Of a DNA stretch of 64,000 bases, positions 1-55,796 are shown one piece after another. This DNA comes from an uncultured Lactobacillales bacterium. Lineage in GTDB: Bacteria > Pseudomonadota > Alphaproteobacteria > CAYJES01. The stretch is taken from contig CAYJES010000001.1 of assembly GCA_964369365.1 (NCBI GenBank), forward strand, positions 30,967 to 94,966, given 5' to 3'. The notes under the pieces are model-generated. The model had not been told where the DNA came from. It ran no database searches and saw only the letters and a list, made by a program, of their open reading frames with translations. Numbering within the stretch: the first letter of the stretch is position 1; each line of letters starts with the position of its first letter. The translations under genes were made by a program, and so were the position numbers.

Positions 1-8
1 GTATCCCA

Positions 9-1145
9 TTGACTGATGAAGCAAATGATATGGCTTTAGAGAAATTAATACCTGCCTCATTAACCCTTGATAAAAATAAACATCTCGGAGTTTTGATTTC
101 CCATGCCCACCAAGACCACTTTGGCTTGATAGAGCTTGCCACTGAGCGCGAGATAGATATTTATGCGAATGAAATTACAACCAATATCATAAACGAATCA
201 GGATTTTGGCTAAGAGATCAAGATGAAGATTTGCCTATCTCAAACTTTAAAGTCGATGAATTCTTTGAAATTGGTGAGTTTAAAATAAAAACTTATAGAG
301 TCGACCACACTTATGATGCTGTGGCTTTTTTAATTTATATCGATGGCAAAAAAATCTTTTATACTGGGGATTTCAGAAACCATGGCAATGTAGATTTTTT
401 CAGCAAATTATTACAGCACGAAGAAATAAAAAATGCCGATATAATGTTAATCGAAGGTACGACCATAGGCAATGATGAAGAACACAAGGCTAAATCAGAA
501 AAAGACCTTATCCCAGAATTTGTTCAGTTTTTTAATAATCACGAAGGACTGCCCTTGATTGCCTGTTCCTCGCAAAATTTTGATAGAATTGTGAATATTA
601 TAAAAACTGCGAATTTGTTAAAAAAAGAACTTGTGATTGATATGTACACTTATAACATTTTACACACTTACGAAAATAACGCTTTAAATGGGGCATTAAC
701 AAAGGTTAAAGTTTTTCTGCCAGACAATCAAAAAATTAAAATAGTAAACTCTGAACGTTTCGATAAATTATGCCCAAAGAATCAAAGAGTTTTTGAAGAA
801 GACTTCAAAGAAAATTACAAGAATTACATCGTACTTTACAAAGCAAGTTACAATAAATTATTCTCTGAAGTTCCTGAATGTGCAACTAAGGCGAAACTAG
901 CATATTCTATGTGGCAAGGGTATTTTGAAAAAGATAAAAGACTACAATCTTTTCTTGAAAAATATAATATAGAAACAAAGCATATTCACACTTCTGGCCA
1001 TGCAAGCGACAAAGCGATAATCACTCTTGTCCAAAATATGACACCTAAAAATATCATTCCTATTCACACAATGCACGCAGGTAAGTTTTGTGAATTATTT
1101 CCAAACACAATCATTTCTTCTGACGGACAAGTTATTGATTTTTAA
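9..1145 (+). CDS. Metallo-beta-lactamase / beta-CASP family nuclease-like protein. Possibly 5'-partial: the frame is open back to the window start.
   Basis: HAHQDH (HxHxDH) MBL motif, downstream VDHTY and TGDF motifs, C-terminal HTSGHAS beta-CASP-like motif. The track start is TTG at 9 with no in-frame stop upstream within the window. Confidence 0.6.
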   Translation: MTDEANDMALEKLIPASLTLDKNKHLGVLISHAHQDHFGLIELATEREIDIYANEITTNIINESGFWLRDQDEDLPISNFKVDEFFEIGEFKIKTYRVDHTYDAVAFLIYIDGKKIFYTGDFRNHGNVDFFSKLLQHEEIKNADIMLIEGTTIGNDEEHKAKSEKDLIPEFVQFFNNHEGLPLIACSSQNFDRIVNIIKTANLLKKELVIDMYTYNILHTYENNALNGALTKVKVFLPDNQKIKIVNSERFDKLCPKNQRVFEEDFKENYKNYIVLYKASYNKLFSEVPECATKAKLAYSMWQGYFEKDKRLQSFLEKYNIETKHIHTSGHASDKAIITLVQNMTPKNIIPIHTMHAGKFCELFPNTIISSDGQVIDF

Positions 1146-1221
1146 CCATTTTTCTCCATTATTTTATACGTCGCATTTTGACGTATATTGATGATATATT
1201 TTATATATTAACAACAAAACA

Positions 1222-3273
1222 ATGGAGAAAATTATGACCGAAGAAAAAAGAATTGCCCTATACTATGCATCCATTTTATATAACACCAAAATGTCTAAAT
1301 CTTATCGTGAAAACTTCATAGATTGGGCTACAGAACATGCACCCGAGATATTTGATGAAAAACTGTATACCAACGACGTAAATGATGAATACTTTGTTGA
1401 CGACGATGATGATGAAAAGGCATTAATTAGCAAACATAATAAGTCTCATAAAAACGAAAAAAATCTTGGATTATTATTAAAAGCTGTAAAAGCGCCTAAA
1501 CGCCTTTCATGTACAGGGAAAACTTACAAAAAAGCTAATATGATTTGCGATGCATTGGGGATACATGATATTGATCGCGAAATTATAAGGCTATCTGTTT
1601 TTATAAAAGAATTTGAAACAATAAGAGACCTAATTAAAAGTGTTGAAAAAAAAGATTTTGACATTAATTTAATTTCTTGGCTATTGCAAAAACCTATTAA
1701 CTCTGTAAAACAAGCTCTAGGCGACCAATCTCCTTTAATAAAAAAAGGTTTATTAGAGTTTTCATATCGCAGTAATTACTCAAAAACTAATATATTAAAT
1801 AAAGTTCTTATATCTCCTTGCAGAAACTATAATGAAATACGGCGAGTTGTATTAGATGAAAAAGCTAAAACCAAACTTTCAAAAAAAGACTTCCAACACG
1901 TTGAAAACGAACTTAATTTTTTAATTAAAATACTAACTAAATGTTTTGAAAAAAAAGAATTAGGCGTAAATATAATGCTTTATGGCCCTCCTGGCACAGG
2001 AAAAACAGAATTTTCAAAAGTGTTATGTAAAGAATTAAAAGCAGATCTGTATATGCTTTCCGAAAATGCAGATGATCTTAAAAACAAAAGCAGATTGACC
2101 GAATTACGGCTTGCTCAGTCTTTAACAAAAGATGATAAAAACACAGTATTGCTTCTTGATGAAGCTGAAGATGTTTTCTATGGTTCTGATACCGCTTCTA
2201 AAATGTATGTTAATCGCGCACTTGAAAAAAACCAAACCCCTGTTATTTGGATAAGCAATAACATAAGGTGGATGGATCCCGCGTATTTACGTAGATATAC
2301 TTATGCAATAGAGTTTCCAGAACCACCCGAAAGCGTACGTGAAAGTTTATGGAAAAATATCGCAAAGAAAAATAAATACAAACTATCCATTAAAAAAGCA
2401 AAAGAATATGCAAAAAAATATGAAATTGCGCCTTCTTTTATCAACAGAGCGATACGGTCAGCAGCACTTTTAGATGACGAAAGTGCTATTGATAAAACAA
2501 TCCAAAGCCTTAAGAAAGCTATTACAGGAAAAGATTTTACTAAAAACGAAACTGATAAAAATAAAAAAAAATATAATGGCGAATATAACACAAACTTTAA
2601 TACTGACATACTTAACACCGATATTGATTTAAAAAAACTTGCAATGAGCCTTAAAAATAAAGAAACAAAACGATTTTCTTTGTGTCTTTTTGGGGCTGCA
2701 GGAACTGGCAAATCTGAATATGCAAGGTACCTTGCAAATGAATTGAAATTGCCAATAATCCACAAACGAGCATCAGACTTAATCAGCAAATATGTCGGTG
2801 AAACAGAACAAAATATTGCAGAAGTATTTAAACAAGCAAAAGAAAAGAAATCACTATTAATCTTTGATGAAGCAGATAGTTTTTTACAAGACAGAAGCCT
2901 TGCTCAGAGAACGTGGGAGGTTTCCAGCGTAAACGAGATGCTAACATGGATGGAAAATCATCCATACCCATTTATTTGCACCACAAATTTAATGGAAAGT
3001 TTGGATAAAGCGAGCTTGCGACGTTTTACATTCAAGGTAAAATACGACTATTTGAAATCTGAACAAGTTCAAAAAGCTTTCAAACACTTCTTTAATAAAG
3101 ATGCAAATCTTGGTGAACTTATAAACCTGGGTCATCTTGCTCCTGGAGATTTTATGGTAGTGAAAAATAAAGCAGAGATTTTAGAAATAGAAAATCGGTT
3201 CGACCTTATCGAAATGCTACAAAGCGAACAAGAAGCGAAAGGCATAATCACAAAACCTAAAATCGGCTTTTAA
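1222..3273 (+). CDS. Tandem AAA+ ATPase: ~230-aa N-terminal domain of unknown type followed by two classical AAA modules. The start is more likely ATG at 1234, which has GGAG 8 nt upstream.
   Basis: Walker A GPPGTGKT and GAAGTGKS. Walker B LLLDEAED and LLIFDEAD. Sensor-1 and Arg-finger segments ISNN...LRRYTY and CTTN...LRRFTF. Confidence 0.7.
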   Translation: MEKIMTEEKRIALYYASILYNTKMSKSYRENFIDWATEHAPEIFDEKLYTNDVNDEYFVDDDDDEKALISKHNKSHKNEKNLGLLLKAVKAPKRLSCTGKTYKKANMICDALGIHDIDREIIRLSVFIKEFETIRDLIKSVEKKDFDINLISWLLQKPINSVKQALGDQSPLIKKGLLEFSYRSNYSKTNILNKVLISPCRNYNEIRRVVLDEKAKTKLSKKDFQHVENELNFLIKILTKCFEKKELGVNIMLYGPPGTGKTEFSKVLCKELKADLYMLSENADDLKNKSRLTELRLAQSLTKDDKNTVLLLDEAEDVFYGSDTASKMYVNRALEKNQTPVIWISNNIRWMDPAYLRRYTYAIEFPEPPESVRESLWKNIAKKNKYKLSIKKAKEYAKKYEIAPSFINRAIRSAALLDDESAIDKTIQSLKKAITGKDFTKNETDKNKKKYNGEYNTNFNTDILNTDIDLKKLAMSLKNKETKRFSLCLFGAAGTGKSEYARYLANELKLPIIHKRASDLISKYVGETEQNIAEVFKQAKEKKSLLIFDEADSFLQDRSLAQRTWEVSSVNEMLTWMENHPYPFICTTNLMESLDKASLRRFTFKVKYDYLKSEQVQKAFKHFFNKDANLGELINLGHLAPGDFMVVKNKAEILEIENRFDLIEMLQSEQEAKGIITKPKIGF

Positions 3274-3321
3274 TATTCAAATAAATTTGATATGATACGT
3301 TAAAAAAGAAAAGGATGTAAA

Positions 3322-3930
3322 ATGAAGTACAACCAACTAAAAGACATATTAGAAAAACTCGAAAGCAAATATAGAGATACTAAATTTCATAAAGATAATT
3401 ATATGCGACAATATTTTGTCCTAGATACGAATGCAAAAGAAAATGATAAAGATTTGCCAATTGTCATCGTTGTCGGAGCTAATTATTGGCAATATGGGGG
3501 TGAAGAATACAAGGAGTTCTGTTTAAATGGAGTTGAAGAACCTAAAAAAGATGCTACAAATACACGAATTAAAAACTTTTTAAACAACCATATTAATAAT
3601 TCTTTCAACACTGACCCTATTGGTGATTTCCACCTAATTTTCACCAACCTATCTCCTTATATTGCGAAAGAAGGATGGGATGAAATTGATAAAAAGGAAA
3701 AAGAAATACTTTTAGCAGAAGCTGAAAATTTAGGTCATATTAATGAATTAGCAAAAGAGCTGGCAGATAAAAAGGAAAATTTAATTTGGATTGGCCACAC
3801 AAAATCCATTTTTGAACAATTAGAAAAAAAGCTTACTAGCATTTGCGAGATTAAAGAAAAATTTTATCTCTGTAATAATCTAAGCCGGTGCAACAATCCT
3901 AACTTTCAAGAAGTGAAGAAAAATGACTAA
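3322..3930 (+). CDS. Hypothetical protein (202 aa), translationally coupled to the downstream GGCT-like gene.
   Basis: AAGGA RBS 7 nt upstream of the ATG. 8-nt overlap with the next ORF. No recognisable motif. Confidence 0.5.
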   Translation: MKYNQLKDILEKLESKYRDTKFHKDNYMRQYFVLDTNAKENDKDLPIVIVVGANYWQYGGEEYKEFCLNGVEEPKKDATNTRIKNFLNNHINNSFNTDPIGDFHLIFTNLSPYIAKEGWDEIDKKEKEILLAEAENLGHINELAKELADKKENLIWIGHTKSIFEQLEKKLTSICEIKEKFYLCNNLSRCNNPNFQEVKKND

Positions 3931-4336
3931 CGAGTTTTATTACTTTGGATATGGTAGCAATATGGATTGGGCTCGAATGAAAAAAAGATGTCCTGAATCT
4001 GTTGCTATTGGGGTTGCGAAACTGCCAGAACATAAGGTTGTTGAACGCAAATTTGCGGACATAGAACCTTGCAAAAATTCCACTGTTTTCGGTGTACTTT
4101 ACAAGATATCAGAAGATGATTTAACCGCCTTAGACCATTATGAAGGTTACCCTGATGGCTATGACCGCAAATACATCGATGTTTATTACCAAGATCAAAA
4201 GCATAAAGCTATCGTGTACGAAATGACCGAAAGCTATAGAGAGTTTAATCAAGATATTCCATATTCGGATGAATATAAAAAACTATGTTATGATGCAGCT
4301 GCGCATTGGGATTTACCTATTAACGCATACGAATAA
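3923..4336 (+). CDS. Gamma-glutamyl cyclotransferase (GGCT/AIG2)-like protein.
   Basis: N-terminal YFGYGSNM motif characteristic of the GGCT/AIG2 fold. Size 137 aa. Confidence 0.55.
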   Translation: MTNEFYYFGYGSNMDWARMKKRCPESVAIGVAKLPEHKVVERKFADIEPCKNSTVFGVLYKISEDDLTALDHYEGYPDGYDRKYIDVYYQDQKHKAIVYEMTESYREFNQDIPYSDEYKKLCYDAAAHWDLPINAYE

Positions 4337-4341
4337 AACTA

Positions 4342-5310
4342 TTAATATTCAGGCAAGCTTTCCCAGAAATTTGTTGGCTTTATTACCTTTACCTTATCGC
4401 CCCAAGTGTATAGATGCCAAGACATTTCACGTCTACCTCCTGCCCTAAATTTCACCAAAAGCGATCCGTCTTTTTTGCGTTTTACTTTTTGAGTGGGGTG
4501 GAAGACATAACGTTCTGCCTCATCTGCCGCTTCTTTTGCAAATAACCATTCAACATCAAAAGGTTCTTCTTGATAGGTCCCAAAAGAATTTTCAACATAT
4601 TTTTCAAGTGAAAATTTTGCATCTTCTTCAAAGGTTTCTTTTAAAATCGTTACCTTTTTAATATTTCCAAGAATATAATAGCGCAGCTCACCTTTTGACC
4701 TTCCATCAACATATTTTGCTAACAAATAATGATTCCTATCTCCATAAACAAAACCCATAGGTATAAGTTTAGTATAATTAATTTTCCCGCTAGATTGATT
4801 AAAATAATCAATTTTGATTTGTCGGAAAGAGTGCAATGCGTCTCTTAACACACTAACGATAGTGTTGTCCATTTTTATCTTAGGACCAGGGCGTAACGCA
4901 AGCCCTTCTGATTTCAAAATATCCTCGACATCCATTGCAACGCTAGATTTTGGCTTTATCAATGATAAGAATTTATTTCTTGCTGTTTCTAAATTCTTTG
5001 CTTTTTCATCTAGGTTATTTTTTTGCAAATGTTTAATCGCACTATTAATTGCTGCAAGCTCACTTTTTGTCAGACTTGCCAACCCTGTCAATTTATTGGA
5101 AGTTAATCTGAAATGCTTTTTATTATCATCTCCATATTCTTCTAAAAAATCTGCAGCGAAATAGTTTGCGATTGCATTTCGCATACGCTCTGCAGTTCTT
5201 CTGCCTACACCAAATCTTTCTTGAATGTCATCTAAGGTTATTCCTTCGCTATTGCCTTGCATCATAAACGCAAGGTCAAACATATCCAACATCTTCCCAT
5301 AATTTTCCAT
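4342..5310 (-). CDS. HTH + WYL-domain transcriptional regulator (BrxR/CapW-like). The track's TTG at 5340 is probably an over-extension; ATG at 5310 has GGAGG 10 nt upstream.
   Basis: N-terminal winged-HTH-like segment (ITLDDIQERFGVGRRTAERMRNAI). Central WYL-like segment (KLIPMGFVYGDRNHYLLAKYVDG). Size ~320 aa. Confidence 0.55.
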   Translation of the reverse strand: MENYGKMLDMFDLAFMMQGNSEGITLDDIQERFGVGRRTAERMRNAIANYFAADFLEEYGDDNKKHFRLTSNKLTGLASLTKSELAAINSAIKHLQKNNLDEKAKNLETARNKFLSLIKPKSSVAMDVEDILKSEGLALRPGPKIKMDNTIVSVLRDALHSFRQIKIDYFNQSSGKINYTKLIPMGFVYGDRNHYLLAKYVDGRSKGELRYYILGNIKKVTILKETFEEDAKFSLEKYVENSFGTYQEEPFDVEWLFAKEAADEAERYVFHPTQKVKRKKDGSLLVKFRAGGRREMSWHLYTWGDKVKVIKPTNFWESLPEY

Positions 5311-5314
5311 ATTG

Positions 5315-6454
5315 CTAAACCTCCATAATTTTTTTAGCAATTTGCATTATTACTTCATCAATTTCATTTATCTTTTTTATTAAAGTTTCTTTTGATATCA
5401 AAAAATCATTTTTTTTACTTGTCAATAAAACATCACCTATTTTGGTTGTTTGTGCTGTTTTTGATATTTTCAGCTTTTCTCTTGATTTTTTGAACCCTTC
5501 AACTTTTTCCAATTCACATTTTATTTTATTAATCATGTCCAATCGAACCTTAGATGATCTGAACTTTTCATATTTCACCCTTATATCTATTTTATTCTTT
5601 TTCGAAGTTTCCTCTTTGTCGTATCCAAGAACTGAGTAATATAAAAACATTCTGTTTGATATATCAAACCCTTTTATTTTTAAAGCATTATCTTTTTTCC
5701 ATCCGTCATAGAGAAAATACCATTTATTTTGTTTATCATTTACACATATATCATTAAAAAAACCTTGCCATGTCCATTTAGACCAATTCTTCAAATCATT
5801 ACATTCTTTATACTCATCTGTTTTTTTATTAACATATGTCCAATAATTAAAAAATTCATCAATTATCCACATATCTTTATTAACATTACTTTCTAATGAA
5901 TTTAAAAAATCCACTCTATCAAAAAGGGTGTATTTCTCCTTATCTAACATACCCTTAAAATCTTTATTATTTAAAAAATTTCCTGTTTTTGTAACGATGC
6001 CAAAAATATCATTTTCTTTAAAACCTTTTGCTTCTACAATTTTTCTATACTTAGATAATTGAGATTCCTTGTCGTTGTTATTTTTTTTATTTTTCGCTTT
6101 TACTTCTTTTTCTTTTTTGCTTTTTTTTATATTGCTATCATGAATATCGGAATCTGTTTTATCTTCTATAATAAGGGCTTTTTTTATATTATTATTTTTA
6201 TCAACCTGCTCAAAATAAACTAACACATCGATATTGTCTTTTTGAACTTTCACCTCTGTTATTTTATAATCCCCTTCTATTCCAGCCTTTTCAAATAATG
6301 CATCGGCGAATGATTTTCCTGCTTTATGTAAATTATCATCTTTTTTTTCATTTTCTTCTCGTGACCATTCAAGGAGCCAGGCGATAAAGGCATCTTGCGA
6401 CAACTCTTTCGTTGCAAATTGAAATAAATTTGGTTTTTGAAGTTGATTTGTCAT
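5315..6454 (-). CDS. Hypothetical protein with a putative N-terminal PD-(D/E)XK nuclease core and a Lys/Asn-rich C-terminal half.
   Basis: AAGGAG RBS. Motifs DVLVYFE ... LIIEDKTD resemble the D...(D/E)xK catalytic core. This is inference. Confidence 0.4.
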   Translation of the reverse strand: MTNQLQKPNLFQFATKELSQDAFIAWLLEWSREENEKKDDNLHKAGKSFADALFEKAGIEGDYKITEVKVQKDNIDVLVYFEQVDKNNNIKKALIIEDKTDSDIHDSNIKKSKKEKEVKAKNKKNNNDKESQLSKYRKIVEAKGFKENDIFGIVTKTGNFLNNKDFKGMLDKEKYTLFDRVDFLNSLESNVNKDMWIIDEFFNYWTYVNKKTDEYKECNDLKNWSKWTWQGFFNDICVNDKQNKWYFLYDGWKKDNALKIKGFDISNRMFLYYSVLGYDKEETSKKNKIDIRVKYEKFRSSKVRLDMINKIKCELEKVEGFKKSREKLKISKTAQTTKIGDVLLTSKKNDFLISKETLIKKINEIDEVIMQIAKKIMEV

Positions 6455-6505
6455 TATACATCTCCTTTTTATTATTTTAAATATTAACCTTATGACGCTT
6501 CTATA

Positions 6506-7522
6506 TCAAATATTGTCATTATTATCATTACTCTGTGAAGAGCAAAAACATACATCATTATGTTTTATATTATATTTTAATCCGATTAAGTCTTCTAAGA
6601 ATTCTTTTTTTTCTTGCTTAAACTTATTAAATACATCTTCTATTGATACATGAAAACAATTCTTACCTTCCATTTGCTTGCTACTATCTCGAGAAAATAG
6701 TATATATATTTTATCATCTGATTTTGGTGACCCATTAAAAATATTCGTATAACCTGAATTACCATCAAATTTAACTTGAGCGTACAAATAACAACCGTCA
6801 GAAAATCGGCCTATTATATCATAAATTGCTAAACTTTTGCCTACTCTTACATTACTGTATTCATATTTTTTATCTTTAAACCAATTTAACCGCAAGTACT
6901 CTTCGCACATTTGCTCTACCGCTTTATAATGCATTAAATCTATGGATAAATCTATTTGCTCTCCTTTATAAATAAGAGGAATTATTGTATTATATATAGG
7001 AGATTTTGGTCTACATATTGTATTGTAAGGAGGCCTGGCTGATAATAAAGCAGGATAATCTTCATAAAAAATTTCCTTTACGTTTTTTATAGTTAGATAT
7101 TTCATTGGAAACATATTATCTTCAACGTCTTTTATTTCGTCGCTATCTATCTCCCCTATAAGAATTTTTTTTACTTGAACATCATCTACTAAAAGTTCAT
7201 ATTCGGCTACTATAAGAATATTATTTTTGTTTTTTATTATATTTTCAAAAGTTTTTTGGATATTTAACATATTTTTTAATGATTTTTCATTTGCATTTTC
7301 AAGCAATTTAGGTTCATTATCTTTATAATATTTTTTAGCTAAGTTTATCAAAGAATCATTATCATTATCATACTTTTTATAATCTTTATATGAAACAGGA
7401 AAATGGCCAAAACATATTCTTTTTTTATCAAATGCTCTTTGTGCGAAATTATTTTTTCTTTCATCTTCCGTTTTACAATATTGTAAAAAATTATGCCTTA
7501 TAAAATAAACTTCTTTTTCCAT
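6506..7522 (-). CDS. Hypothetical protein (~338 aa). Start is probably ATG at 7522 (AAGGAG 8 nt upstream) rather than the track start at 7555.
   Basis: ORF lies in an operon with the flanking nuclease-like genes, with 10-nt and 52-nt gaps. No confident domain assignment. Confidence 0.45.
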   Translation of the reverse strand: MEKEVYFIRHNFLQYCKTEDERKNNFAQRAFDKKRICFGHFPVSYKDYKKYDNDNDSLINLAKKYYKDNEPKLLENANEKSLKNMLNIQKTFENIIKNKNNILIVAEYELLVDDVQVKKILIGEIDSDEIKDVEDNMFPMKYLTIKNVKEIFYEDYPALLSARPPYNTICRPKSPIYNTIIPLIYKGEQIDLSIDLMHYKAVEQMCEEYLRLNWFKDKKYEYSNVRVGKSLAIYDIIGRFSDGCYLYAQVKFDGNSGYTNIFNGSPKSDDKIYILFSRDSSKQMEGKNCFHVSIEDVFNKFKQEKKEFLEDLIGLKYNIKHNDVCFCSSQSNDNNDNI

Positions 7523-7532
7523 ATTTTTCTCC

Positions 7533-8984
7533 TTATATTTTACTATACAACACATCTATCAACTTTGCCATAGCAAGGGTGTCTTGGTGGCAGTATTGGG
7601 TTAGACCTGAGAACAGAGTTTGTTCTTCTTCCTCTGATAGTTTGTTTTGCATAAATGATAGGTATCTATCCATTGCTTCGCCGCCGTTTGCTATTTCCAT
7701 ATCGTCATAGCTTAGGTCGGTGAAAGCTGGCAACACATATTTGATAGAGTTTGAATTTTGTTGTTTTGGATTGTATAAAACCCTGTCTCTAAATGGCTTC
7801 AACAAATCAATCATACGGGCGTTAATTGATAAAATATCAGAGTTTAAATCCGGAAATAGATTTGCAAGTTCTTTATTCCTAGTTTCTTCAAATGCTTGAT
7901 TATATACGATAACAGATCCTTTTTTACCGCAACTATCAACCAATTTTTCGGCAAACAATCTGCGAGGGTCTGATTTTTCTTTATGAAGAAACTCGATATG
8001 TTCCAGCGTCCCTCCCTTTTCTTTTTGAATATGGAGCGAAAATTGAAACGGGATTTGGTTGTAAGTTCCGCTGTTATCAAACAAAGGAATTGCTGGTTGG
8101 ATTGTTTCATAATCAAGATAATATAATGGATATTCCAACGTATCCAAAAATTCTTTTATTCTGTCTTTGTCGACGTATTCTTTGTTATCAATGAACGCTT
8201 GCACAGCCACCTTTGCCGCATCAGAACATTCTGGCAAAATATCAGGCGTGATTTCTGCGCTTTTCCTTTGGATGTATAGCTTGTCAGCCTTTGGATTTCG
8301 AATAACATCAAAAAGCGAAAATTCTGGGATATCTTTACCACAATAATGATAAAATTGACAGCCTTTGCACGCCTTATGAAGTTCTATTTTTGGTTCTGAT
8401 TTTCCTTTTTGGATTTTATAAAATTCTAAAGCTTTTTTTTGCACGTCGTGATACTCATATTCCACTTGTTCAGATACATCCGTTAAGGTAAATAACTGTT
8501 TAACATCAATCTTGCCATCTTTCTTATATTCCTTGTTAAAATGCAAAACATAACAGCTTTTTATTGGATAACCAGCTTGCATAAACACATAACGTTGAAA
8601 GGCCAAATCGACATAATGTTCTGATTTTGCTTCGTTAGTAGCCTTTATTTCAATCAAATCCCAGCCGTTAGAGTTCCTTTGCATTACGTCAATTCGGCAG
8701 TATGCGCCCCAAGTGGTTTTTGCAAAAGCCTCAAATAAAATATCGTGCTTTTTGCTTTGTTCTTGAGTTATCAAACAACCGCCTGTGATGTTCCAATAGT
8801 CTGCTTCCACCATATAACCGCCATCAAAGAAATCACGTGCAAGGTCTTGAGTTTCATTACCCTTATCAAAAATGGCTTGCAATTCTTGTGGGGTAGGAGG
8901 AATCAAATCTTTGCGATTTTTCTTTAACCACAAGGCCTTAGCACAATCCAGCGCCATCATATAGTCAGATTTTGATAAAAACAT
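7533..8984 (-). CDS. Fusion protein: N-terminal Cas4/RecB-like PD-(D/E)XK nuclease with Cys cluster, plus C-terminal DnaQ-like DEDD 3'-5' exonuclease. Possibly DUF2779-like.
   Basis: AGGAGG RBS 6 nt upstream. Nuclease motifs WDLIEIK (D..ExK) and QRYV (QxxxY-like). Cys cluster CKGCQFYHYC plus N-terminal Cys. Exonuclease motifs YLDYETI (Exo I, DxE), VYNQAFEE (Exo II, NxxF[DE]) and YCHQDTLAMAKL (Exo III, HxxD). Confidence 0.5.
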   Translation of the reverse strand: MFLSKSDYMMALDCAKALWLKKNRKDLIPPTPQELQAIFDKGNETQDLARDFFDGGYMVEADYWNITGGCLITQEQSKKHDILFEAFAKTTWGAYCRIDVMQRNSNGWDLIEIKATNEAKSEHYVDLAFQRYVFMQAGYPIKSCYVLHFNKEYKKDGKIDVKQLFTLTDVSEQVEYEYHDVQKKALEFYKIQKGKSEPKIELHKACKGCQFYHYCGKDIPEFSLFDVIRNPKADKLYIQRKSAEITPDILPECSDAAKVAVQAFIDNKEYVDKDRIKEFLDTLEYPLYYLDYETIQPAIPLFDNSGTYNQIPFQFSLHIQKEKGGTLEHIEFLHKEKSDPRRLFAEKLVDSCGKKGSVIVYNQAFEETRNKELANLFPDLNSDILSINARMIDLLKPFRDRVLYNPKQQNSNSIKYVLPAFTDLSYDDMEIANGGEAMDRYLSFMQNKLSEEEEQTLFSGLTQYCHQDTLAMAKLIDVLYSKI

Positions 8985-9028
8985 AATCCCTCCTAATTTA
9001 TATTTTAGATTAACAGCCTATCATTTAT

Positions 9029-9868
9029 TTAGCAATTGTTTAATTCCATAACAAAGTAAAAATTGAAATAATTACTTTTCACTACATAAACTTTTAACTT
9101 GTTTTTCCATTCTTCTGTAAAATTCTTATCTTTTTTCTTTTTACCTTTTTTATAAAAATCTCGCCATACTGAAAAATATGGATCTTCAATTTCTATTACA
9201 TTATCAATATAATTAAACGGCTTTAAGTTTTTGGAAAAAACATCTTGTATATTAAAATAGTTTTTCTTTCTTATTGATACATATTTTTTACATATAATGT
9301 GTACTTGATACTTCTCAGCCATTTCTTTTAATTTTTTAACTATATACTCATCAATATTTTTCTTTTTTTTGTTACGCTCTATTAAAAAATATTCTTCTAT
9401 ATAAACCACTTCAGACATTGATGCATTTTTTATAATCTTTTCAATCTGTTTAAAAGAATATTCAAAATTGTGATAAGTTTCTATTGGATAATGTTTATAC
9501 TTTTTGACTTCTTTTTCAAGTTCATTAATATCTAAATTTTTGATTTTTTTGGCATCGCAAAAATCGCTTTTTAAAATATTTTTGTAATGAGAGAAGTTAT
9601 TATCTCCCGCTATCCATAACAAATTTCCATCTTCATTTTGGCTCAACTTATCAGCAATTCCTAACATAATACTTTTATCAAATTTCTGTACGATTGAATT
9701 TCTAAGGGTTGTATTGACAATAAATGTCACTTCGCCCTTACGAAAACCCTGAATAGCATTATCAATTTCTTTTATTCCACAACAGGCGCCTTGCAAACCT
9801 GATTTAATTTTTTTAGCTTCTTCTATGAAATTATAAATACCTTGCTGCAATGTCATATTTTTATACAT
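9029..9868 (-). CDS. Hypothetical protein (279 aa), possibly a degenerate RecA/DnaB-C-terminal-like pseudo-ATPase.
   Basis: AAGGAGG RBS 6 nt upstream. SGLQGACCGIKEIDNAIQGFRKGEVTFIVNTT resembles the DnaB/KaiC strand-P-loop region but lacks GK[ST]. Confidence 0.3.
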   Translation of the reverse strand: MYKNMTLQQGIYNFIEEAKKIKSGLQGACCGIKEIDNAIQGFRKGEVTFIVNTTLRNSIVQKFDKSIMLGIADKLSQNEDGNLLWIAGDNNFSHYKNILKSDFCDAKKIKNLDINELEKEVKKYKHYPIETYHNFEYSFKQIEKIIKNASMSEVVYIEEYFLIERNKKKKNIDEYIVKKLKEMAEKYQVHIICKKYVSIRKKNYFNIQDVFSKNLKPFNYIDNVIEIEDPYFSVWRDFYKKGKKKKDKNFTEEWKNKLKVYVVKSNYFNFYFVMELNNC

Positions 9869-9937
9869 TTTAACCTCCTTATTAAATATCTATAAAAAGG
9901 ATAAAACTTATTTCCGACAAAGTATGTCGTATTACTT

Positions 9938-10447
9938 TTATTGAAAAGTTGTAATGTGCTCCGGATATGGCTTTATATTGTTCAGTTTATCTGCAAAAAA
10001 TGCGGGATATGCCTCATATTCTCTTAACTTTTCAATCGGCAACCATTCCATTCTTTCGGTTATTTCGCCGTTGAAAGTTTTGCTTTCTTTGGTTATTTCA
10101 ACTCTTTTACCTTTTGGCTTCATCAAAAAGAAAAAAGTTATTTCGTGGCATGCAAGCCCACTTAACATCCCGTCTTTTCGTTTGAAAAAGTTTTCTTGAA
10201 CAAATGCAAGCCTGTCTATTTCATAATATATGCCTACCTCCTCAGCCACTTCACGCAGAACGGCACTCTCTGCACTTTCACCTATTTCAACTGCCCCACC
10301 AATGGAATAATAATAATTTTCAGAATCATTCGTTGCAAAAAGAACATGATTTTCTTCGATTATAATTGCCGCTGCCCGCAACCTAAACCGCTTATTATCC
10401 GCTGTCTTATAACATACATCTTTAACTTCACTATTTACTATATTCAT
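9938..10447 (-). CDS. NUDIX hydrolase.
   Basis: Nudix box GGAVEIGESAESAVLREVAEEVGI (Gx5Ex7REUxEExGU). Confidence 0.75.
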   Translation of the reverse strand: MNIVNSEVKDVCYKTADNKRFRLRAAAIIIEENHVLFATNDSENYYYSIGGAVEIGESAESAVLREVAEEVGIYYEIDRLAFVQENFFKRKDGMLSGLACHEITFFFLMKPKGKRVEITKESKTFNGEITERMEWLPIEKLREYEAYPAFFADKLNNIKPYPEHITTFQ

Positions 10448-10466
10448 TTTATTTTTCTTTTATTTC

Positions 10467-10910
10467 CTATTCATAAATGCAGAAATGTTGATTTTTTGCT
10501 ATTAAATCAATTGCCTTTTTAACGTGGGGCAAAGTTTGTTCAGGCAGGTTATTTATATCAAAAAAAACAATTTCTTCGCATTTTTCTGGTTCGTTATTTT
10601 GAATTTGTCCTGAGAATTTTGTAGCTTTGATAAAAATATCAATTATATCGGTTGGATCGCCTTTATATGGCGCATTTGGACGTTGCATTGTTAACACAAC
10701 TTGCAAATCTTCTGGGGTTATGTCTATTCCTGCCTCTTCTTTTGCCTCTCTGATTATTGCATTTATAACTGTTTCGCCTTTTTCAGTGTGCCCTGCAATC
10801 ATGCTGTATTTACCAGCCAAAATTTCAGATTTACTTTTACTTAATAACACCTTTTCATCTTGGATTAATACTAGATACGCACCTATTAATGGTCTTTGAT
10901 TTCCTGTCAT
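10467..10910 (-). CDS. NUDIX hydrolase (second, adjacent paralogue).
   Basis: Nudix box AGHTEKGETVINAIIREAKEEAGI. Confidence 0.75.
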   Translation of the reverse strand: MTGNQRPLIGAYLVLIQDEKVLLSKSKSEILAGKYSMIAGHTEKGETVINAIIREAKEEAGIDITPEDLQVVLTMQRPNAPYKGDPTDIIDIFIKATKFSGQIQNNEPEKCEEIVFFDINNLPEQTLPHVKKAIDLIAKNQHFCIYE

Positions 10911-10912
10911 AA

Positions 10913-11587
10913 CTAATCTTTCCTTATTAAAATGTGATAGTGATAACTTTGACTTAGCTCGCCTTCTACTTCATAATATCTGCAAACGTGTTCAAGGTCA
11001 ACTATCTGAAATTCTTTGAATAACTCGCCTATTAAATCATAATCAGCATAAAAATGCGGAACTTTATATTCTGGACCTTGATCCATTCTAAGTTTAGTAT
11101 TTTCATCAACCATAGGCCAATCTTTTTTAAATCCCCACGTGTCCTTTGACCCTAAAGTTAGGTAACATTCCCCACCAGATTTAAGAATTCTATACAATTC
11201 TTTTATAATCTGCTTTACGCCATTTGTGTCGGTGTGAGAGATTACGTTTCTGCATAAAATACAGTCCATAGAATTATCTTGATATGGCAGATTTAACATA
11301 TCTCCTATGGCAAAATCGACAATAAGATTTTCCGTTTCTGCCCATTCTTTTGTTCTGGCTATGGCATTTTCACTTATGTCAAATGCAAACACATTAAAAC
11401 CATTTTTTGCAAATAAAATAGAATGCCTGCCTAAACCACAACCCAAGTCCAAAATTTCTTTTTTATGTTGAGAAATCCAACGACTAAGCAAATAAAAACT
11501 TTCCGGAGCAGGATTTTTCCAAACATTTTCATTGTCCCCAGAAACTATTTCCCAATTCCAACCAACCGATTTTATTATTTCATTCAT
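10913..11587 (-). CDS. Class I SAM-dependent methyltransferase.
   Basis: Motif I ILDLGCGLGRHS. Acidic motif II FAFDISE. Confidence 0.7.
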   Translation of the reverse strand: MNEIIKSVGWNWEIVSGDNENVWKNPAPESFYLLSRWISQHKKEILDLGCGLGRHSILFAKNGFNVFAFDISENAIARTKEWAETENLIVDFAIGDMLNLPYQDNSMDCILCRNVISHTDTNGVKQIIKELYRILKSGGECYLTLGSKDTWGFKKDWPMVDENTKLRMDQGPEYKVPHFYADYDLIGELFKEFQIVDLEHVCRYYEVEGELSQSYHYHILIRKD

Positions 11588-12084
11588 TTTGCACCTATCA
11601 CTTTATTTATATCTTTATCATTTTTTAAAATTATAACTTTATTAAAGTATTTTTCTTTTAAGGTATTAATATTCTCTTTTCCTTTTTTAAGATTTTCAAA
11701 ATTCCATTTTATTAGATTTATAATACTTTTGAATGTTTCGCCTTTACTTGCTAAAACACCTAACTTTCGTAGCAAAAATCTTTTTAAAATTCTAAAATTC
11801 CTAATATGAATATTTACATCAAGAACATAAATTTTATCAGCATTTTCAAAAGATTCATAAAGCCATGAAAAATATATACCTTCAATAATATAGTTCGAAT
11901 TTTGCATAAAGTCTTTTAATAATTTATGGCGTTCTTCTTTGTCTCTTTTTTGTCCGTAACCTTTTACATTATTATCCCAAAATATATCGTCAAGTTCAAG
12001 TAGAGGAATATTATGCTGTGACACAAGCTGTTTTGCAACGGTTGTTTTTCCACTGCCACTTTCGCCGATTATATGAATTTTCAT
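11584..12084 (-). CDS. P-loop NTPase / small kinase (adenylate-kinase or topology-modulation-like).
   Basis: Walker A IIGESGSGKTT at the N-terminus. Size 166 aa. Confidence 0.6.
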   Translation of the reverse strand: MKIHIIGESGSGKTTVAKQLVSQHNIPLLELDDIFWDNNVKGYGQKRDKEERHKLLKDFMQNSNYIIEGIYFSWLYESFENADKIYVLDVNIHIRNFRILKRFLLRKLGVLASKGETFKSIINLIKWNFENLKKGKENINTLKEKYFNKVIILKNDKDINKVIGAK

Positions 12085-12111
12085 ATATTACTGTCCTTTA
12101 AACTTTGCATT

Positions 12112-12639
12112 TTAATAATTTTCTATATGCGTCAAGTAAGTTGGAGGAATTATTCCATTTTTTAACACAATAAGATAATACGGAAGAAAGTAAAATCTTC
12201 TACCTTTTTCATCATTACAAACCGACCAATCAATAGAAGACAAATCAATATCATTAATATCTTCTAGCTTAATTAAAATTTCATCTCCGTTATAATTTTC
12301 TTCTACTGTATTTATATCAGCGGGAGGAGAATAATAAATATCTTCCAACAATCCATCCTTTTCAAGAGATAAAATATCAATAGATAGTAAATCAGAATTT
12401 TGAATAAACTCTTTAAGAGATAAACTTTCATCATGCCATTGAACGGGCTCAGTTAAAACGCGAACAGATTTAGACCTACCTTTAAAACTTTCCTCCATCC
12501 AATTAACAATTTCTAAATGAGTTTTAGCATTTGCACGTTTTTTATAATATCCTAATTCTGCATTTGGATTTTTAGCAAAAGATAAAATACCTTCTTCTAA
12601 AACTTTACTTCCTTTGGGCACATAATGATAAATTTTCAT
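12112..12639 (-). CDS. Hypothetical protein (175 aa).
   Basis: ORF lies in the co-directional gene array. No motif recognised. Confidence 0.4.
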   Translation of the reverse strand: MKIYHYVPKGSKVLEEGILSFAKNPNAELGYYKKRANAKTHLEIVNWMEESFKGRSKSVRVLTEPVQWHDESLSLKEFIQNSDLLSIDILSLEKDGLLEDIYYSPPADINTVEENYNGDEILIKLEDINDIDLSSIDWSVCNDEKGRRFYFLPYYLIVLKNGIIPPTYLTHIENY

Positions 12640-12706
12640 GATAACCTCTCCTTACTAAAATATTATAGAGGAAATTATGTTAATAAGCTATTTAAACAGC
12701 AAAACT

Positions 12707-13348
12707 CTATTTCTTAGATGGCATAGGATCGTGATAGCCTGCTATTTCGCCATTGCCTATGCGCCATAAATACAAACTTGCCACAGACGCATAAGGAGAA
12801 TATCTGTTTTTATATTTTTCAAATAGCTGCTTAGTGATTTTCTTATGACGATATAACATTCTTAAACCCCTTTGAATTATCAAATCATCATAGGCTATTA
12901 TATTCATTCGGTTCATTGAAAAAATCATTAACATCTGGGCTGTCCATTTGCCTATTCCTTTTAGGTTTGATAGTTTTTCACAAACCGCTTCATCGTCTAA
13001 ATCAAATAGAGATTGCAAATCCAAGTTGCCTGCAACAATTTCATTGGAAACATTTTTAATGTAATCAACTTTGCGATACGTTAACCCGCAAGATTGCAAT
13101 TCGTCATCAGAAAATTTTAATATGTTTAGGGGAGTAATTTCACCCACTTTATCCCTAAACCGTTCATAGATGGTAACGTGAGCTTTCCTGGAAATCTGTT
13201 GACCTATTATTGCATTAATCAGCGAATCAAATAAATCTGGATAGGTTTCTCTTTTTATGAAACCAATTTTATCAATAGCCTCGCCTAAACGCTTATCTTT
13301 TGACTTTAAATGGTTTAGGTGGCTTTCATCATATTCTAAAAAATTCAT
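12707..13348 (-). CDS. HhH-GPD DNA glycosylase (AlkA/3-methyladenine glycosylase II-like).
   Basis: HhH-GPD region LKGIGKWTAQMLMIFSMNRMNIIAYDDLIIQRGL with the catalytic Asp. Confidence 0.65.
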   Translation of the reverse strand: MNFLEYDESHLNHLKSKDKRLGEAIDKIGFIKRETYPDLFDSLINAIIGQQISRKAHVTIYERFRDKVGEITPLNILKFSDDELQSCGLTYRKVDYIKNVSNEIVAGNLDLQSLFDLDDEAVCEKLSNLKGIGKWTAQMLMIFSMNRMNIIAYDDLIIQRGLRMLYRHKKITKQLFEKYKNRYSPYASVASLYLWRIGNGEIAGYHDPMPSKK

Positions 13349-54119: not shown

Positions 54120-55796
54120 TTAAATTCTAACTAAATGCACTTCCGTTAAAGGTTTATTACCTTGAACTTGCGCCACATATTTGCGAATCGCCATTTTTAC
54201 TTGTTCTTTGATTGTAAAATCGTTATTTCTCTCTAACCCTTGCAATCCACCGATTACTTCTTTTACCTTTTCTTTGATTACAGTTATCTCTTCGCTTTCT
54301 TCATCATAAAGTCCAATGCTGGAAATTTGTGGCTCACCCAACAATTCAGCATCTTTATTAATTACTATTGTTGCAACGATACTACCGCTATAGATAATTT
54401 TTTTACGACTTTTAAGGACGCTCGAATCCATACGGATTATGCGTTTTCCGTCTATTGCCAATATTCCAGTTTCAATCGAAGATAGGGTTTTGACATCTTC
54501 ATTGCTGATTAAAACCATATCACCGTCTTTTATTTCTAATGATTTTTCACAACCACATTCAAGAGCGAATTTTGCATGCTCTTCCAAATGAACAGGCTCT
54601 CCGTGAACTGGGATAACATATTTAGGCTTCACAAGTTCATACATTTTTGCCATATCGCCTCTTGCTGGGTGGCCTGATACGTGAATTTCTGGAATATCCG
54701 TATTGCTTATAACTTCTGCACCCAATATTGATAAACGATTTTGAACCAATGACACTTCGGTTTCATTACCTGGAATTACTCTTGCTGAAAAAATAACTAC
54801 ATCTCCTTTTCCAACACGTACGAATCGATTATCATTTTTTGCGATGCTATGCATTGCCGACCTACGTTCCCCTTGCGAACCTGTACAAACATATACCAAT
54901 TCACTTTTATCATATTCTGCTGCTTCTTGTTCCGATAAGAAGTCATCAATATCTATTAAGTATCCACTTGCCCTTGCTGCTCCGTCTGCACGCCATAGCG
55001 ATCTGCCCACCAAACAAACTTTACGATTGTTTTTGGCCGCCGCAATTGCAATACTTTCCAATCTTGCAATGTTAGAAGCAAAACATCCAACTAATATACC
55101 TTTATTATACTTTGCAAATAAATCTATTAAAGTTTCTCTTACCGTCATTTCAGATTTTGAAAAACCTTCAGTGAACACACTTGTTGAATCGCCTATTACA
55201 GCTGTTATTCCTGATTTACCAAAATTTTCAAAAGTTTCATAATTAGGTTTTAATTCAATATCTTTGTTGTTATCAAATTTCCAATCTCCTGTGTGGATTA
55301 CTTTTGTTTCGCCTGCTTTTATCATCAAGGTATGAGCTTCTGGAATCGAATGATTCATCGCAACAAAAGAAATCTCAAAAGGCGATATAGAAATAGTTGT
55401 GTCAGGCGAAATTGTGTTTATTTCCACCCTGCCCAACAATCCCGCTTCATCAAGACGAGATGAAAGCATTTCTTTTGCAAATTCGCTCATGTATAAAGGG
55501 CAACGAAGCTTAGACCATAAATGAGAAATTGCACCAACGTGATCTTCATGCGCGTGAGTGATTACAATGCCCAACAAATCTTTTGCAAATGGCTCTATAA
55601 AATCAATAGAAGGCAACAAAATATCAATACCAGGGATGCTATCATCAGCAAAACCAATGCCCAAGTCTACCATCAACCATTTACCTTTATGATGATAAAG
55701 ATAACAGTTAAGACCTATTTCACCAACACCTCCTAATGGAAGAAAAATCAGTTTATTATTATATTGTTCCAATAATTTTGCTATATCATTATTCAT
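54120..55796 (-). CDS. rnj: Ribonuclease J (MBL/beta-CASP RNase).
   Basis: THAHEDHVGA motif. Beta-CASP and C-terminal domain. Size 558 aa. Confidence 0.8.
   Translation of the reverse strand: MNNDIAKLLEQYNNKLIFLPLGGVGEIGLNCYLYHHKGKWLMVDLGIGFADDSIPGIDILLPSIDFIEPFAKDLLGIVITHAHEDHVGAISHLWSKLRCPLYMSEFAKEMLSSRLDEAGLLGRVEINTISPDTTISISPFEISFVAMNHSIPEAHTLMIKAGETKVIHTGDWKFDNNKDIELKPNYETFENFGKSGITAVIGDSTSVFTEGFSKSEMTVRETLIDLFAKYNKGILVGCFASNIARLESIAIAAAKNNRKVCLVGRSLWRADGAARASGYLIDIDDFLSEQEAAEYDKSELVYVCTGSQGERRSAMHSIAKNDNRFVRVGKGDVVIFSARVIPGNETEVSLVQNRLSILGAEVISNTDIPEIHVSGHPARGDMAKMYELVKPKYVIPVHGEPVHLEEHAKFALECGCEKSLEIKDGDMVLISNEDVKTLSSIETGILAIDGKRIIRMDSSVLKSRKKIIYSGSIVATIVINKDAELLGEPQISSIGLYDEESEEITVIKEKVKEVIGGLQGLERNNDFTIKEQVKMAIRKYVAQVQGNKPLTEVHLVRI

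Follow-up and report, generated by a model that had tools for sequence, protein, structure and literature searches.

What does a tandem AAA+ ATPase do in an operon with a 202-amino-acid (aa) protein that has no Pfam model and a small protein related to gamma-glutamyl cyclotransferase (GGCT), and what switches such an operon on? These genes lie near the start of a 64,000-nucleotide (nt) stretch of DNA, which we call the window, from an uncultured Lactobacillales bacterium (GTDB lineage Bacteria; Pseudomonadota; Alphaproteobacteria; CAYJES01; NCBI GenBank assembly GCA_964369365.1, contig CAYJES010000001.1, positions 30,967 to 94,966 of the forward strand). A first-pass annotation had grouped them with an upstream metallo-beta-lactamase (MBL)-fold gene as a module that could act on gamma-glutamyl or isopeptide substrates. 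Our analysis of an island at positions 1-9931 of the window points to a different reading, to which we assign a probability of about 60%: the locus would be one arm of a two-operon island under the control of a DriD-type WYL activator, with an operon induced by DNA damage or by phage.

A predicted DriD-type operator in front of the ATPase gene

The palindrome described earlier between the MBL and ATPase genes, TATACGTC-N7-GACGTATA, was placed exactly (positions 1165-1187), but it is not a mere separator of two genes. Its sequence identifies it as a conserved DriD-type operator, a predicted binding site and the most informative feature of the locus. As an inverted repeat it is unremarkable among the 27 repeats of at least 8 nt found in 9.2 kb, and generic inverted repeats upstream of related AAA+ genes are enriched about 2-fold (18% versus 8%). 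The conservation of its sequence was examined in 86 loci collected from genomes and metagenomes, to which copies on annotated plasmids and an unverified phage scaffold were added; the sample is biased, since its 80 genome loci are those that best matched the AAA+ protein of the window in tblastn. Over 1.56 Mb of these loci, the perfect 12-base core TACGTC-N7-GACGTA was found 14 times, compared with approximately 0.1 occurrences expected, and the matches are concentrated just upstream of AAA+ genes; even a distant gammaproteobacterial locus shares this core. A degenerate box (TACGWC-N7-GWCGTA, up to 2 mismatches, searched from -60 to +200 of the open reading frame [ORF] start) was present at 42 of 81 AAA+ genes versus 3.2% of random positions. 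Its consensus is TACGtCCgAATcTGACGTA, and its centre lies a median of 54 nt from the AAA+ start codon, ORF starts in high-GC loci being approximate. Three plasmids with RefSeq-annotated starts give a distance of 46-54 nt.

The published DriD site is ATACGAC(N7)GTCGTAT, and the didA promoter used in cryo-electron microscopy contains ATACGTCCGTTTCTGGCGCAT (PMC12041258, PMC13004042). The box in front of the Xanthobacter flavus AAA+ gene departs from the validated Caulobacter site at one spacer base. The spacing is similar as well: by our count on the sequence in PMC13004042, the box centre in the validated Caulobacter CCNA_03891 promoter is about 60 nt from the start, compared with 46-58 nt here. 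The box of the window is followed by a putative -10 element, TATATA, whose spacing resembles that of the didA promoter printed in the same paper, and the AT-rich context makes this element weak when taken alone. The palindrome, conserved in sequence far beyond chance and matching the DriD type, ties the operon to the predicted single-stranded DNA (ssDNA)-sensing WYL activator encoded 1 kb away. A second box of the same type precedes the minus-strand operon that ends with the regulator gene (Table 1).

Boxes of this kind are not confined to AAA+ genes. Two gut metagenome-assembled genomes (MAGs) contain multi-promoter regulon islands with 6 (L001) and 7 (L013) boxes, which stand before WYL, MBL, and several genes of no known kind; in L001, a gene resembling S-AdoMet lyase lies just downstream of the AAA+ gene. 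The AAA+ gene of a Pseudomonas luteola plasmid (L102, NZ_CP044084.1) follows a box that lies 54 nt away, has no WYL gene within 4.5 kb, is flanked by a RecB-like nuclease gene and a dynamin-family gene, and may be served by a regulator acting in trans from elsewhere. Within the window, a box-like TACGACTTTTAAGGACGCT with 2 mismatches at 54404-54422, inside a 558-aa ORF (54120-55796), is probably a chance match.

A DriD-family regulator at the same locus

The regulator gene encodes a wHTH-WYL-WCX protein (wHTH, winged helix-turn-helix) whose best PDB matches were the Caulobacter crescentus DriD structures 8tp8 and 9pfq (full-length match, E value 1.3e-52, residues 14-323 aligned). Its recognition helix, GVGRRTAERMR, is identical to that of DriD, in which the residues Arg37, Glu40, and Arg41 within this helix read the bases (PMC10853764). 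The RRTAER helix occurs in at least 34 WYL proteins of AAA+ loci, and a second WYL subtype is found in others (helix RTxQRDL or RSxQRSL; L025, L026, L031, L035, L036, L044, L049, L065, L066, and L075). Several AAA+ genes in loci with the second subtype nonetheless have CGAC-N7-GTCG-like boxes in front. The box and the recognition helix are spread over Alpha-, Beta-, and Gammaproteobacteria, Acidobacteriota, Nitrospirota, Campylobacterota, gut MAGs, and plasmids.

In DriD itself, binding of ssDNA by the WYL domain leads to binding of a palindrome at or next to the -35 element, where contact with RNA polymerase activates transcription (PMC9186387, PMC10853764, PMC13004042). Its sister regulator, DdaA, activates DNA-damage and anti-phage genes (PMC12392091). 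Membership in a DriD-type regulon was judged by a DriD-family regulator at the locus and a CGxC-N7-GxCG box at activator distance, and the window has both; regulator-dependent activation by ssDNA or DNA damage, a further mark of such a regulon, would be expected here from the precedents in Caulobacter and Acinetobacter. Given the identical recognition helix and the conserved geometry of the box, the operon of AAA+, uracil-DNA glycosylase (UDG)-like, and GGCT-like genes is very probably switched on by this regulator when ssDNA accumulates, as judged by analogy with DriD.

The ATPase resembles Cdc48 and VAT

The two complete AAA modules of the first-pass annotation were borne out by an alignment of the window protein with 18 full-length homologues. 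The Walker A (G255-K261 in D1, G491-K497 in D2) and Walker B (D313/E314 and D549/E550) motifs, the sensor-1 residues N346 and N589, and the arginines R357/R358 and R600/R601 are all invariant. A canonical K-Y-V-G-E pore loop is present in D2 (K523-Y-V-G526), in which V525, G526, and E529 are invariant. D1 has complete ATPase motifs without a canonical pore loop, and models of clamp loaders, RuvB, and Orc match it too. As stated earlier, the N-domain is uncharacterised: a remote homology search with residues 1-215 returned no Pfam or meaningful PDB match. A poly-Asp patch noted within it does exist (D60-D64) but falls in a non-conserved, gapped region of the alignment.

The protein belongs to a large family of tandem ATPases of 650-790 aa, and phrog_10401 matches it nearly end to end (7e-91). 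In profile searches its nearest solved relatives were VAT, Cdc48, p97, NVL, Rix7, and Afg2 (E values of approximately 1e-38 to 1e-29). The protein falls below the cutoffs of both the Cdc48 family (TIGR01243, 68.2 bits versus 802.65) and the IteA/IetA family (NCBIfam NF042959, 119.7 bits versus 510). Cdc48 membership was rejected on that score and because no Cdc48 N-domain is recognisable; IetA membership was rejected on score, on the presence of two modules, and on the lack of IetS. The labels RFC, TRIP13, and DolB were likewise rejected by score as family assignments, and PADLOC has no model that applies at the family level. By analogy with its relatives, the protein most likely forms a Cdc48/VAT-like double-ring hexamer that works as a D2-driven unfoldase. 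Members of the family have a conserved I/L-G-F at the C-terminus, in many cases at its extreme end, reminiscent of the motifs by which proteasomal and Cdc48 ATPases dock through their C-termini.

Neighbours of the ATPase gene in other genomes

Neighbouring genes were compared by profile searches, clustering of ORFs, and tblastn. Only a wHTH-WYL-WCX gene is broadly conserved near the AAA+ gene: 70 of 88 loci have it within 10 kb, and in 31 of 86 it is the next gene downstream, in the same direction; in the window, the 202-aa and GGCT-like genes are inserted between the AAA+ gene and the regulator gene. The other recurrent neighbours encode DNA enzymes, namely a DUF2779/Cas4-like nuclease, MBL proteins, a UvrD-like helicase with a PD-(D/E)XK nuclease, an RNase T-like exonuclease, and a DnaB_C-type ATPase, and an ADP-ribosylglycohydrolase-phosphatase fusion also recurs. 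Homologues of the DUF2779 nuclease of the window occur in the AAA+/WYL loci L010, L014, L017, L035, L079, L092, L095, and L100. Annotated plasmids carry the AAA+ gene and then the WYL gene, with or without DUF2779 between them, and on the phage scaffold the AAA+ gene is again followed by a WYL gene. The stress- or defence-island flavour attributed to the locus holds. In alphaproteobacterial loci (L024, L034, L045, L047, L053, and L087), a second DriD-type box lies downstream of the WYL gene in 5 of 7 cases, and it precedes a gene for a fused ADP-ribosylglycohydrolase and dual-specificity phosphatase, followed by PD-(D/E)XK and UvrD genes.

The 202-aa protein has a UDG-superfamily fold

The 202-aa protein belongs to a rare family. 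An exhaustive HMMER search of 1.84 billion representative sequences yielded 30 relatives of 200-280 aa, in which G52, N54, Y55, N109, H159, and N186 are invariant within the motifs VGxNYxQ, FHLVxTNLSPWIT, WIGH(T/G), and NLS. Profile searches with the family gave no match in Pfam, PHROGs, or PDB sequences and no relatives on viral contigs; none of the 30 members matches a Pfam UDG model, and a word-indexed search with the 202-aa and GGCT-like proteins found nothing beyond the two queries. A 247-aa gene downstream of the AAA+ gene in L001 was considered as a further member and rejected by alignment. A single-sequence AlphaFold2 model was unusable (predicted local distance difference test [pLDDT] of 38). 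With the family alignment, AlphaFold gave a confident model (pLDDT 87.7, predicted template modelling score 0.87), and the top 14 Foldseek matches of this model in the PDB are all UDG-superfamily enzymes, SMUG1 and TDG; its viral matches are DUF1643 and phage UDG-like proteins. At the superfamily level, the predicted structure makes a solid case for a UDG fold. From the order of secondary-structure elements in the model, GxNY, after strand 1, and NLS, after the last strand, would correspond to UDG motifs A and B. The fold is of a DNA-glycosylase kind and not one related to conjugation.

Members of this family were found with WYL or WCX-type regulators in several other loci. One (L092) has a WYL-WCX gene, then DUF2779, then a family member, and another (L088) a WCX-type regulator followed by a family member. 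In L091, WYL and tandem AAA+ genes lie on one strand, and a divergent 349-aa gene is followed by a family member. L095 carries DUF2779, a family member, a tandem AAA+ gene whose product is 42% identical to that of the window, and a WYL gene, all within 10 kb; at 1-4970, this island lies directly beside a type II CRISPR-Cas system (Cas9, Cas2, and Cas1). DriD-type boxes head the operons of the family in L088, L092, and L095. These contexts and boxes indicate that the family recurs as cargo in DriD-boxed islands. With a member in 0 of 87 genome-derived AAA+ loci, it is not an obligate partner of the AAA+ protein.

The GGCT-like gene is specific to this locus and the MBL gene an occasional neighbour

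The claim that the 137-aa protein has a GGCT fold was supported: it scores 55.9 bits against PF06094 (cutoff 22.8), has the YGSN motif, and carries a Glu that aligns with the catalytic Glu of the 'QEG' motif of human GGCT. It also matches human GGCT (2i5t, 1.8e-6) and phrog_2520 (6e-23), and its relatives are common in phages. The suggested neighbourhood analysis of GGCT-like genes, done by tblastn, clustering, and profiles, found such a gene beside the ATPase or 202-aa gene families at 0 of about 95 other loci. Since it is unique to this locus among all those examined, no observation ties it in function to the AAA+ protein beyond its presumed co-transcription here. From the 8-nt overlap of their ORFs, which agrees with the translational coupling proposed for the pair, one may speculate that the GGCT-like and UDG-fold proteins work together.

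The upstream gene had been called a beta-CASP nuclease, a label that is partly supported. Its MBL and RMMBL domains were detected, whereas the beta-CASP insert gave no Pfam match and the RNase J model TIGR00649 scored 63.6 bits against a cutoff of 400. Homologues of this protein are 398-426 aa long, so its 5' end must be cut by the start of the window. They are encoded beside the AAA+ gene in 6 of 86 loci, and in L001 the MBL gene is preceded by a DriD-type box. No terminator was predicted between the AAA+, 202-aa, and GGCT-like genes, in line with the earlier view that the AAA+ and GGCT-like genes share an operon. The MBL gene is a doubtful member because the activator box and the -10-like element sit between it and the AAA+ gene.

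A model for the island and its alternatives

The present analysis provides gene content, fold assignments, the homology to DriD with a recognition helix that is identical, and the evidence on where the box lies and how it is conserved; the sensing of ssDNA and activation from a site near -35 would carry over from the published work on DriD. In the model that we favour, DNA damage or phage replication would generate ssDNA, which would bind the WYL domain of the DriD homologue. The activated dimer would then bind the box at or next to -35 and recruit RNA polymerase, and the AAA+, UDG-like, and GGCT-like genes would be transcribed as one unit, while the second box would drive the 279-aa, DUF2779, 349-aa, 379-aa, and driD-like genes. 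The AAA+ double-ring hexamer would thread a protein substrate through the D2 pore by means of its K-Y-V-G-E loop. Almost all neighbours are DNA-end or base-processing enzymes, and for this reason the likeliest substrates would be proteins bound to or trapped on damaged or foreign DNA, an assignment that we offer as tentative. Their removal might give access to the co-induced UDG-fold protein and DUF2779/Cas4-like nuclease or, elsewhere, to the MBL nuclease or the UvrD/PD-(D/E)XK pairs. A bolder version, distinctly unlikely as a whole, would make the AAA+ protein the original direct target of DriD-type activators and also their most common one, a Cdc48/p97-like segregase switched on by ssDNA that strips proteins from damaged or invading DNA, in a mobile DriD-boxed island with interchangeable DNA-attacking cargo; at this locus, the cargo would be a new effector of two enzymes, in which a UDG-fold glycosylase coupled to a gamma-glutamyl cyclotransferase recognises or dismantles amino-acid-type hypermodified phage bases.

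The same genes could also form an island that is primarily anti-phage, with the WYL protein acting like CapW, BrxR, or DdaA, the AAA+ protein as an IetA-like effector or sensor, possibly abortive, the UDG-fold protein acting like Brig1 or Brig2 on hypermodified phage bases, and the GGCT-like protein as an accessory. This possibility overlaps with our model in regulation and differs in purpose and target. We hold it to be somewhat doubtful, as the regulator is closest to the activator DriD and not to the repressors CapW and BrxR, PADLOC and NCBIfam give no family-level assignment of the ATPase to a defence system, library scans of the window genes between 1 and 9868 detected neither IetS nor any other protease domain, and many of the loci lie among housekeeping genes. 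A purely regulatory role for the AAA+ protein, in which it strips ssDNA-bound DriD from promoters or unfolds DriD to reset the response, would account for the tight operon linkage of the AAA+ gene to driD. Adjacency and co-direction in 31 loci, where all other genes are variable, and a C-terminal I-G-F that suggests docking to a fixed partner speak for such a role. A local regulator beside its main target is common, though, and needs no physical interaction; in addition, Caulobacter DriD functions without such a partner and the boxed AAA+ gene of the P. luteola plasmid has no WYL gene close by, which leaves this role very unlikely.

The gamma-glutamyl or isopeptide module proposed earlier, comprising the AAA+, 202-aa/GGCT-like, and MBL proteins, retains a genuine GGCT fold with its catalytic residues in place and, within the AAA+ operon, the translational coupling of the GGCT-like and 202-aa genes. 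It is nonetheless highly improbable: no other AAA+ or 202-aa-family locus has the GGCT-like gene, MBL genes occur at only the 6 loci mentioned, the 202-aa protein has a UDG fold, and no ubiquitin-like, ligase, or glutamine-synthetase-like gene was seen among the island genes scanned. Finally, the palindrome might do no more than end transcription of the MBL gene as an intrinsic terminator, or be an inverted repeat that arose by chance, given that it lies 20 nt after the MBL stop codon and that repeats of this size are frequent. Yet the terminator scan made no call there, and across phyla AAA+ genes share the sequence of the DriD site, and not just its pairing, at a fixed distance upstream, so that we consider this explanation extremely improbable.

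Relationship to known systems

The closest parallel to the regulatory system of the island is Caulobacter DriD, with which it shares a homologous wHTH-WYL-WCX regulator with the same recognition helix, a CGxC-N7-GxCG palindrome with an AT-rich spacer, and nucleases among the targets. The targets themselves differ, being didA, bapE, recJ, and dnaG in Caulobacter and the tandem AAA+, UDG-fold, GGCT-like, and DUF2779 genes here, and the published Caulobacter regulon contains no AAA+ ATPase. The regulator is divergently transcribed in Caulobacter but is the last gene of a boxed operon here, and islands of the window type are compact, carry varying cargo, and lie in part on plasmids or phages. The Moraxellaceae protein DdaA is also a WYL activator, clusters next to DriD, and has a motif (CGWCA-N5-TGWCG) in the same register, but it governs a genome-wide network that replaced SOS and has no reported AAA+ partner (PMC12392091). 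Among solved structures, the window protein is closer to DriD; DdaA is set apart by its description and not by a sequence comparison. CapW and BrxR resemble the regulator in their wHTH-WYL-WCX architecture, palindromic operators, defence-island context, and, for CapW, ssDNA sensing, but they are repressors in a separate phylogenetic cluster (PMC12392091), whereas the helix and the box here are of the DriD type.

As for the ATPase, D2 resembles the classical AAA module of IetA in IetAS (PADLOC, 2e-40), but IetA has one module in about 370 aa and the subtilisin-like protease IetS as a partner, unlike the two-module protein of the window, which has no protease beside it. With Cdc48, p97, and VAT, its closest solved sequences, it shares two stacked AAA modules with intact motifs and an aromatic pore loop, here in D2 only; it differs from them in that their double-psi-barrel N-domain was not detected in the window protein and in its D1, which lacks a pore loop and resembles clamp-loader and RuvB modules. 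The 202-aa protein can be likened to Brig1 and Brig2 by fold only, as a divergent, stand-alone UDG-superfamily protein that has about 200 aa and occurs in island or mobile settings; its family differs in having its own motifs (GxNYxQ, TNLSPWIT, WIGHT, and NLS) and a link to DriD boxes. An ADP-ribosylglycohydrolase neighbours brig1 (PMC11078745) as well as AAA+-WYL loci. The GGCT-like protein, likened to the family of human GGCT, GGACT, and phage phrog_2520, passes the Pfam GGACT threshold and aligns with human GGCT at YGSN and the catalytic Glu, but it is short and encoded in a DriD-boxed operon, coupled to a UDG-fold gene.

The regulatory system is of a known kind, and the features that appear new are the conserved AAA+ target, the organisation as a mobile island whose cargo varies, and the UDG-fold family. 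Current descriptions present DriD as a regulator of the Caulobacter family with a handful of targets. Within the limit of a search of open-access literature text, we found no report that links a DriD or other WYL regulator to a tandem AAA+ ATPase. Damage-induced protein remodelling is a well-known role of p97 in eukaryotes, and to our knowledge it has not been established in bacteria. A preferred DriD-box target that is an uncharacterised Cdc48-like double AAA+ protein would be a candidate for such remodelling in bacterial DNA repair or anti-phage defence. The box may also serve as a simple sequence tag for finding co-regulated cargo genes, and the UDG-fold family, which profile libraries miss, would add to a recently recognised class of glycosylase-type defence or repair effectors.

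Layout of the island

The four ORFs of the first-pass annotation have the coordinates it gave them (Table 1), and the NCBI call of the AAA+ gene begins at the second ATG, 1234, instead of 1222. Overall, the region 1-9931 contains two convergent DriD-boxed operons whose ends are 5 nt apart.

Table 1. Features of the two-operon island (positions in the window)
Feature	Position	Strand	Details
MBL-fold hydrolase with C-terminal RMMBL motif	9..1145	+	Pfam Lactamase_B_2 7e-14, RMMBL 1e-5
DriD-type operator ATACGTC-N7-GACGTAT (predicted)	1166..1186		Centre 46 nt upstream of ATG 1222; spacer GCATTTT; 21-bp duplex ATACGTCGCATTTTGACGTAT
-10-like hexamer TATATA (putative promoter element)	1202..1207	+	15 nt after box
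Tandem (type II) AAA+ ATPase, 683 aa	1222..3273	+	Pfam AAA x2, 1.7e-40
AAA+ N-domain	1222-1866	+	215 residues
AAA+ D1	about 1867-2541	+	Walker A 1984-2007, Walker B 2158-2172
AAA+ D2	about 2629-3273	+	Walker A 2692-2715, pore loop K-Y-V-G 2788-2799, Walker B 2866-2877
Conserved C-terminal I-G-F of AAA+ protein	3262-3270	+	Homologue alignment
202-aa protein, UDG-superfamily fold (predicted), rare family	3322..3930	+	No Pfam model
G52-x-N54-Y55-x-Q57 (202-aa protein)	3475-3492	+
T108-N109-L-S-P (202-aa protein)	3643-3657	+
W156-I-G-H159-T (202-aa protein)	3787-3801	+
N186-L-S (202-aa protein)	3877-3885	+
GGCT/GGACT (AIG2-like) protein, 137 aa	3923..4336	+	Pfam PF06094, 8e-15, 55.9 bits vs cutoff 22.8
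DriD-family wHTH-WYL-WCX transcription factor	4342..5340	-	Pfam WYL and WCX; convergent with GGCT-like gene
379-aa protein, driD operon	5315..6454	-	Overlaps driD-like gene by 26 nt
349-aa protein, driD operon	6506..7555	-	Weak phrog_31197 match, 1e-4; overlaps DUF2779 gene by 23 nt
Cas4-like/DUF2779/RNase-H-like nuclease, 483 aa	7533..8984	-	Pfam DUF2779 2.8e-44, Cas_Cas4 9e-8, RNase_H_2 3e-6
279-aa protein, first gene of minus-strand operon	9029..9868	-	AGGAGG and second box in front
Second DriD-type box (predicted), (A)TACGAC-ATACTTT-GTCGGA	9913..9931	-	Centre about 54 nt upstream of ATG 9868; then -10-like element, AGGAGG

The minus-strand operon is tightly packed in the order 279 aa, DUF2779, 349 aa, 379 aa, and driD. 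Its 379-aa protein has no match in Pfam, PADLOC, NCBIfam, or PHROGs, and the 279-aa protein none in Pfam or PHROGs. The 349-aa protein has the same length as the 349-aa protein of L091, but the two are unrelated. A megablast search of window positions 1-9000 against plasmids gave no match. Adjoining the second box, at 9938-13348 on the minus strand, a nucleotide- and base-sanitising cluster encodes two NUDIX hydrolases, an S-adenosylmethionine methyltransferase, a P-loop kinase-like protein of small size, and a base-excision glycosylase of the HhH-GPD type, and no box was detected ahead of this cluster. Where the two operons meet, no terminator was predicted between the GGCT-like stop codon (4336) and the driD-like stop codon (4342), and induced transcripts would therefore enter each other's 3' ends. 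A 20-nt inverted repeat (80% complementary, with a 13-nt spacer) spans the junction at which the 379-aa and driD-like genes overlap (5300-5352) and could be an internal regulatory site or an attenuator.

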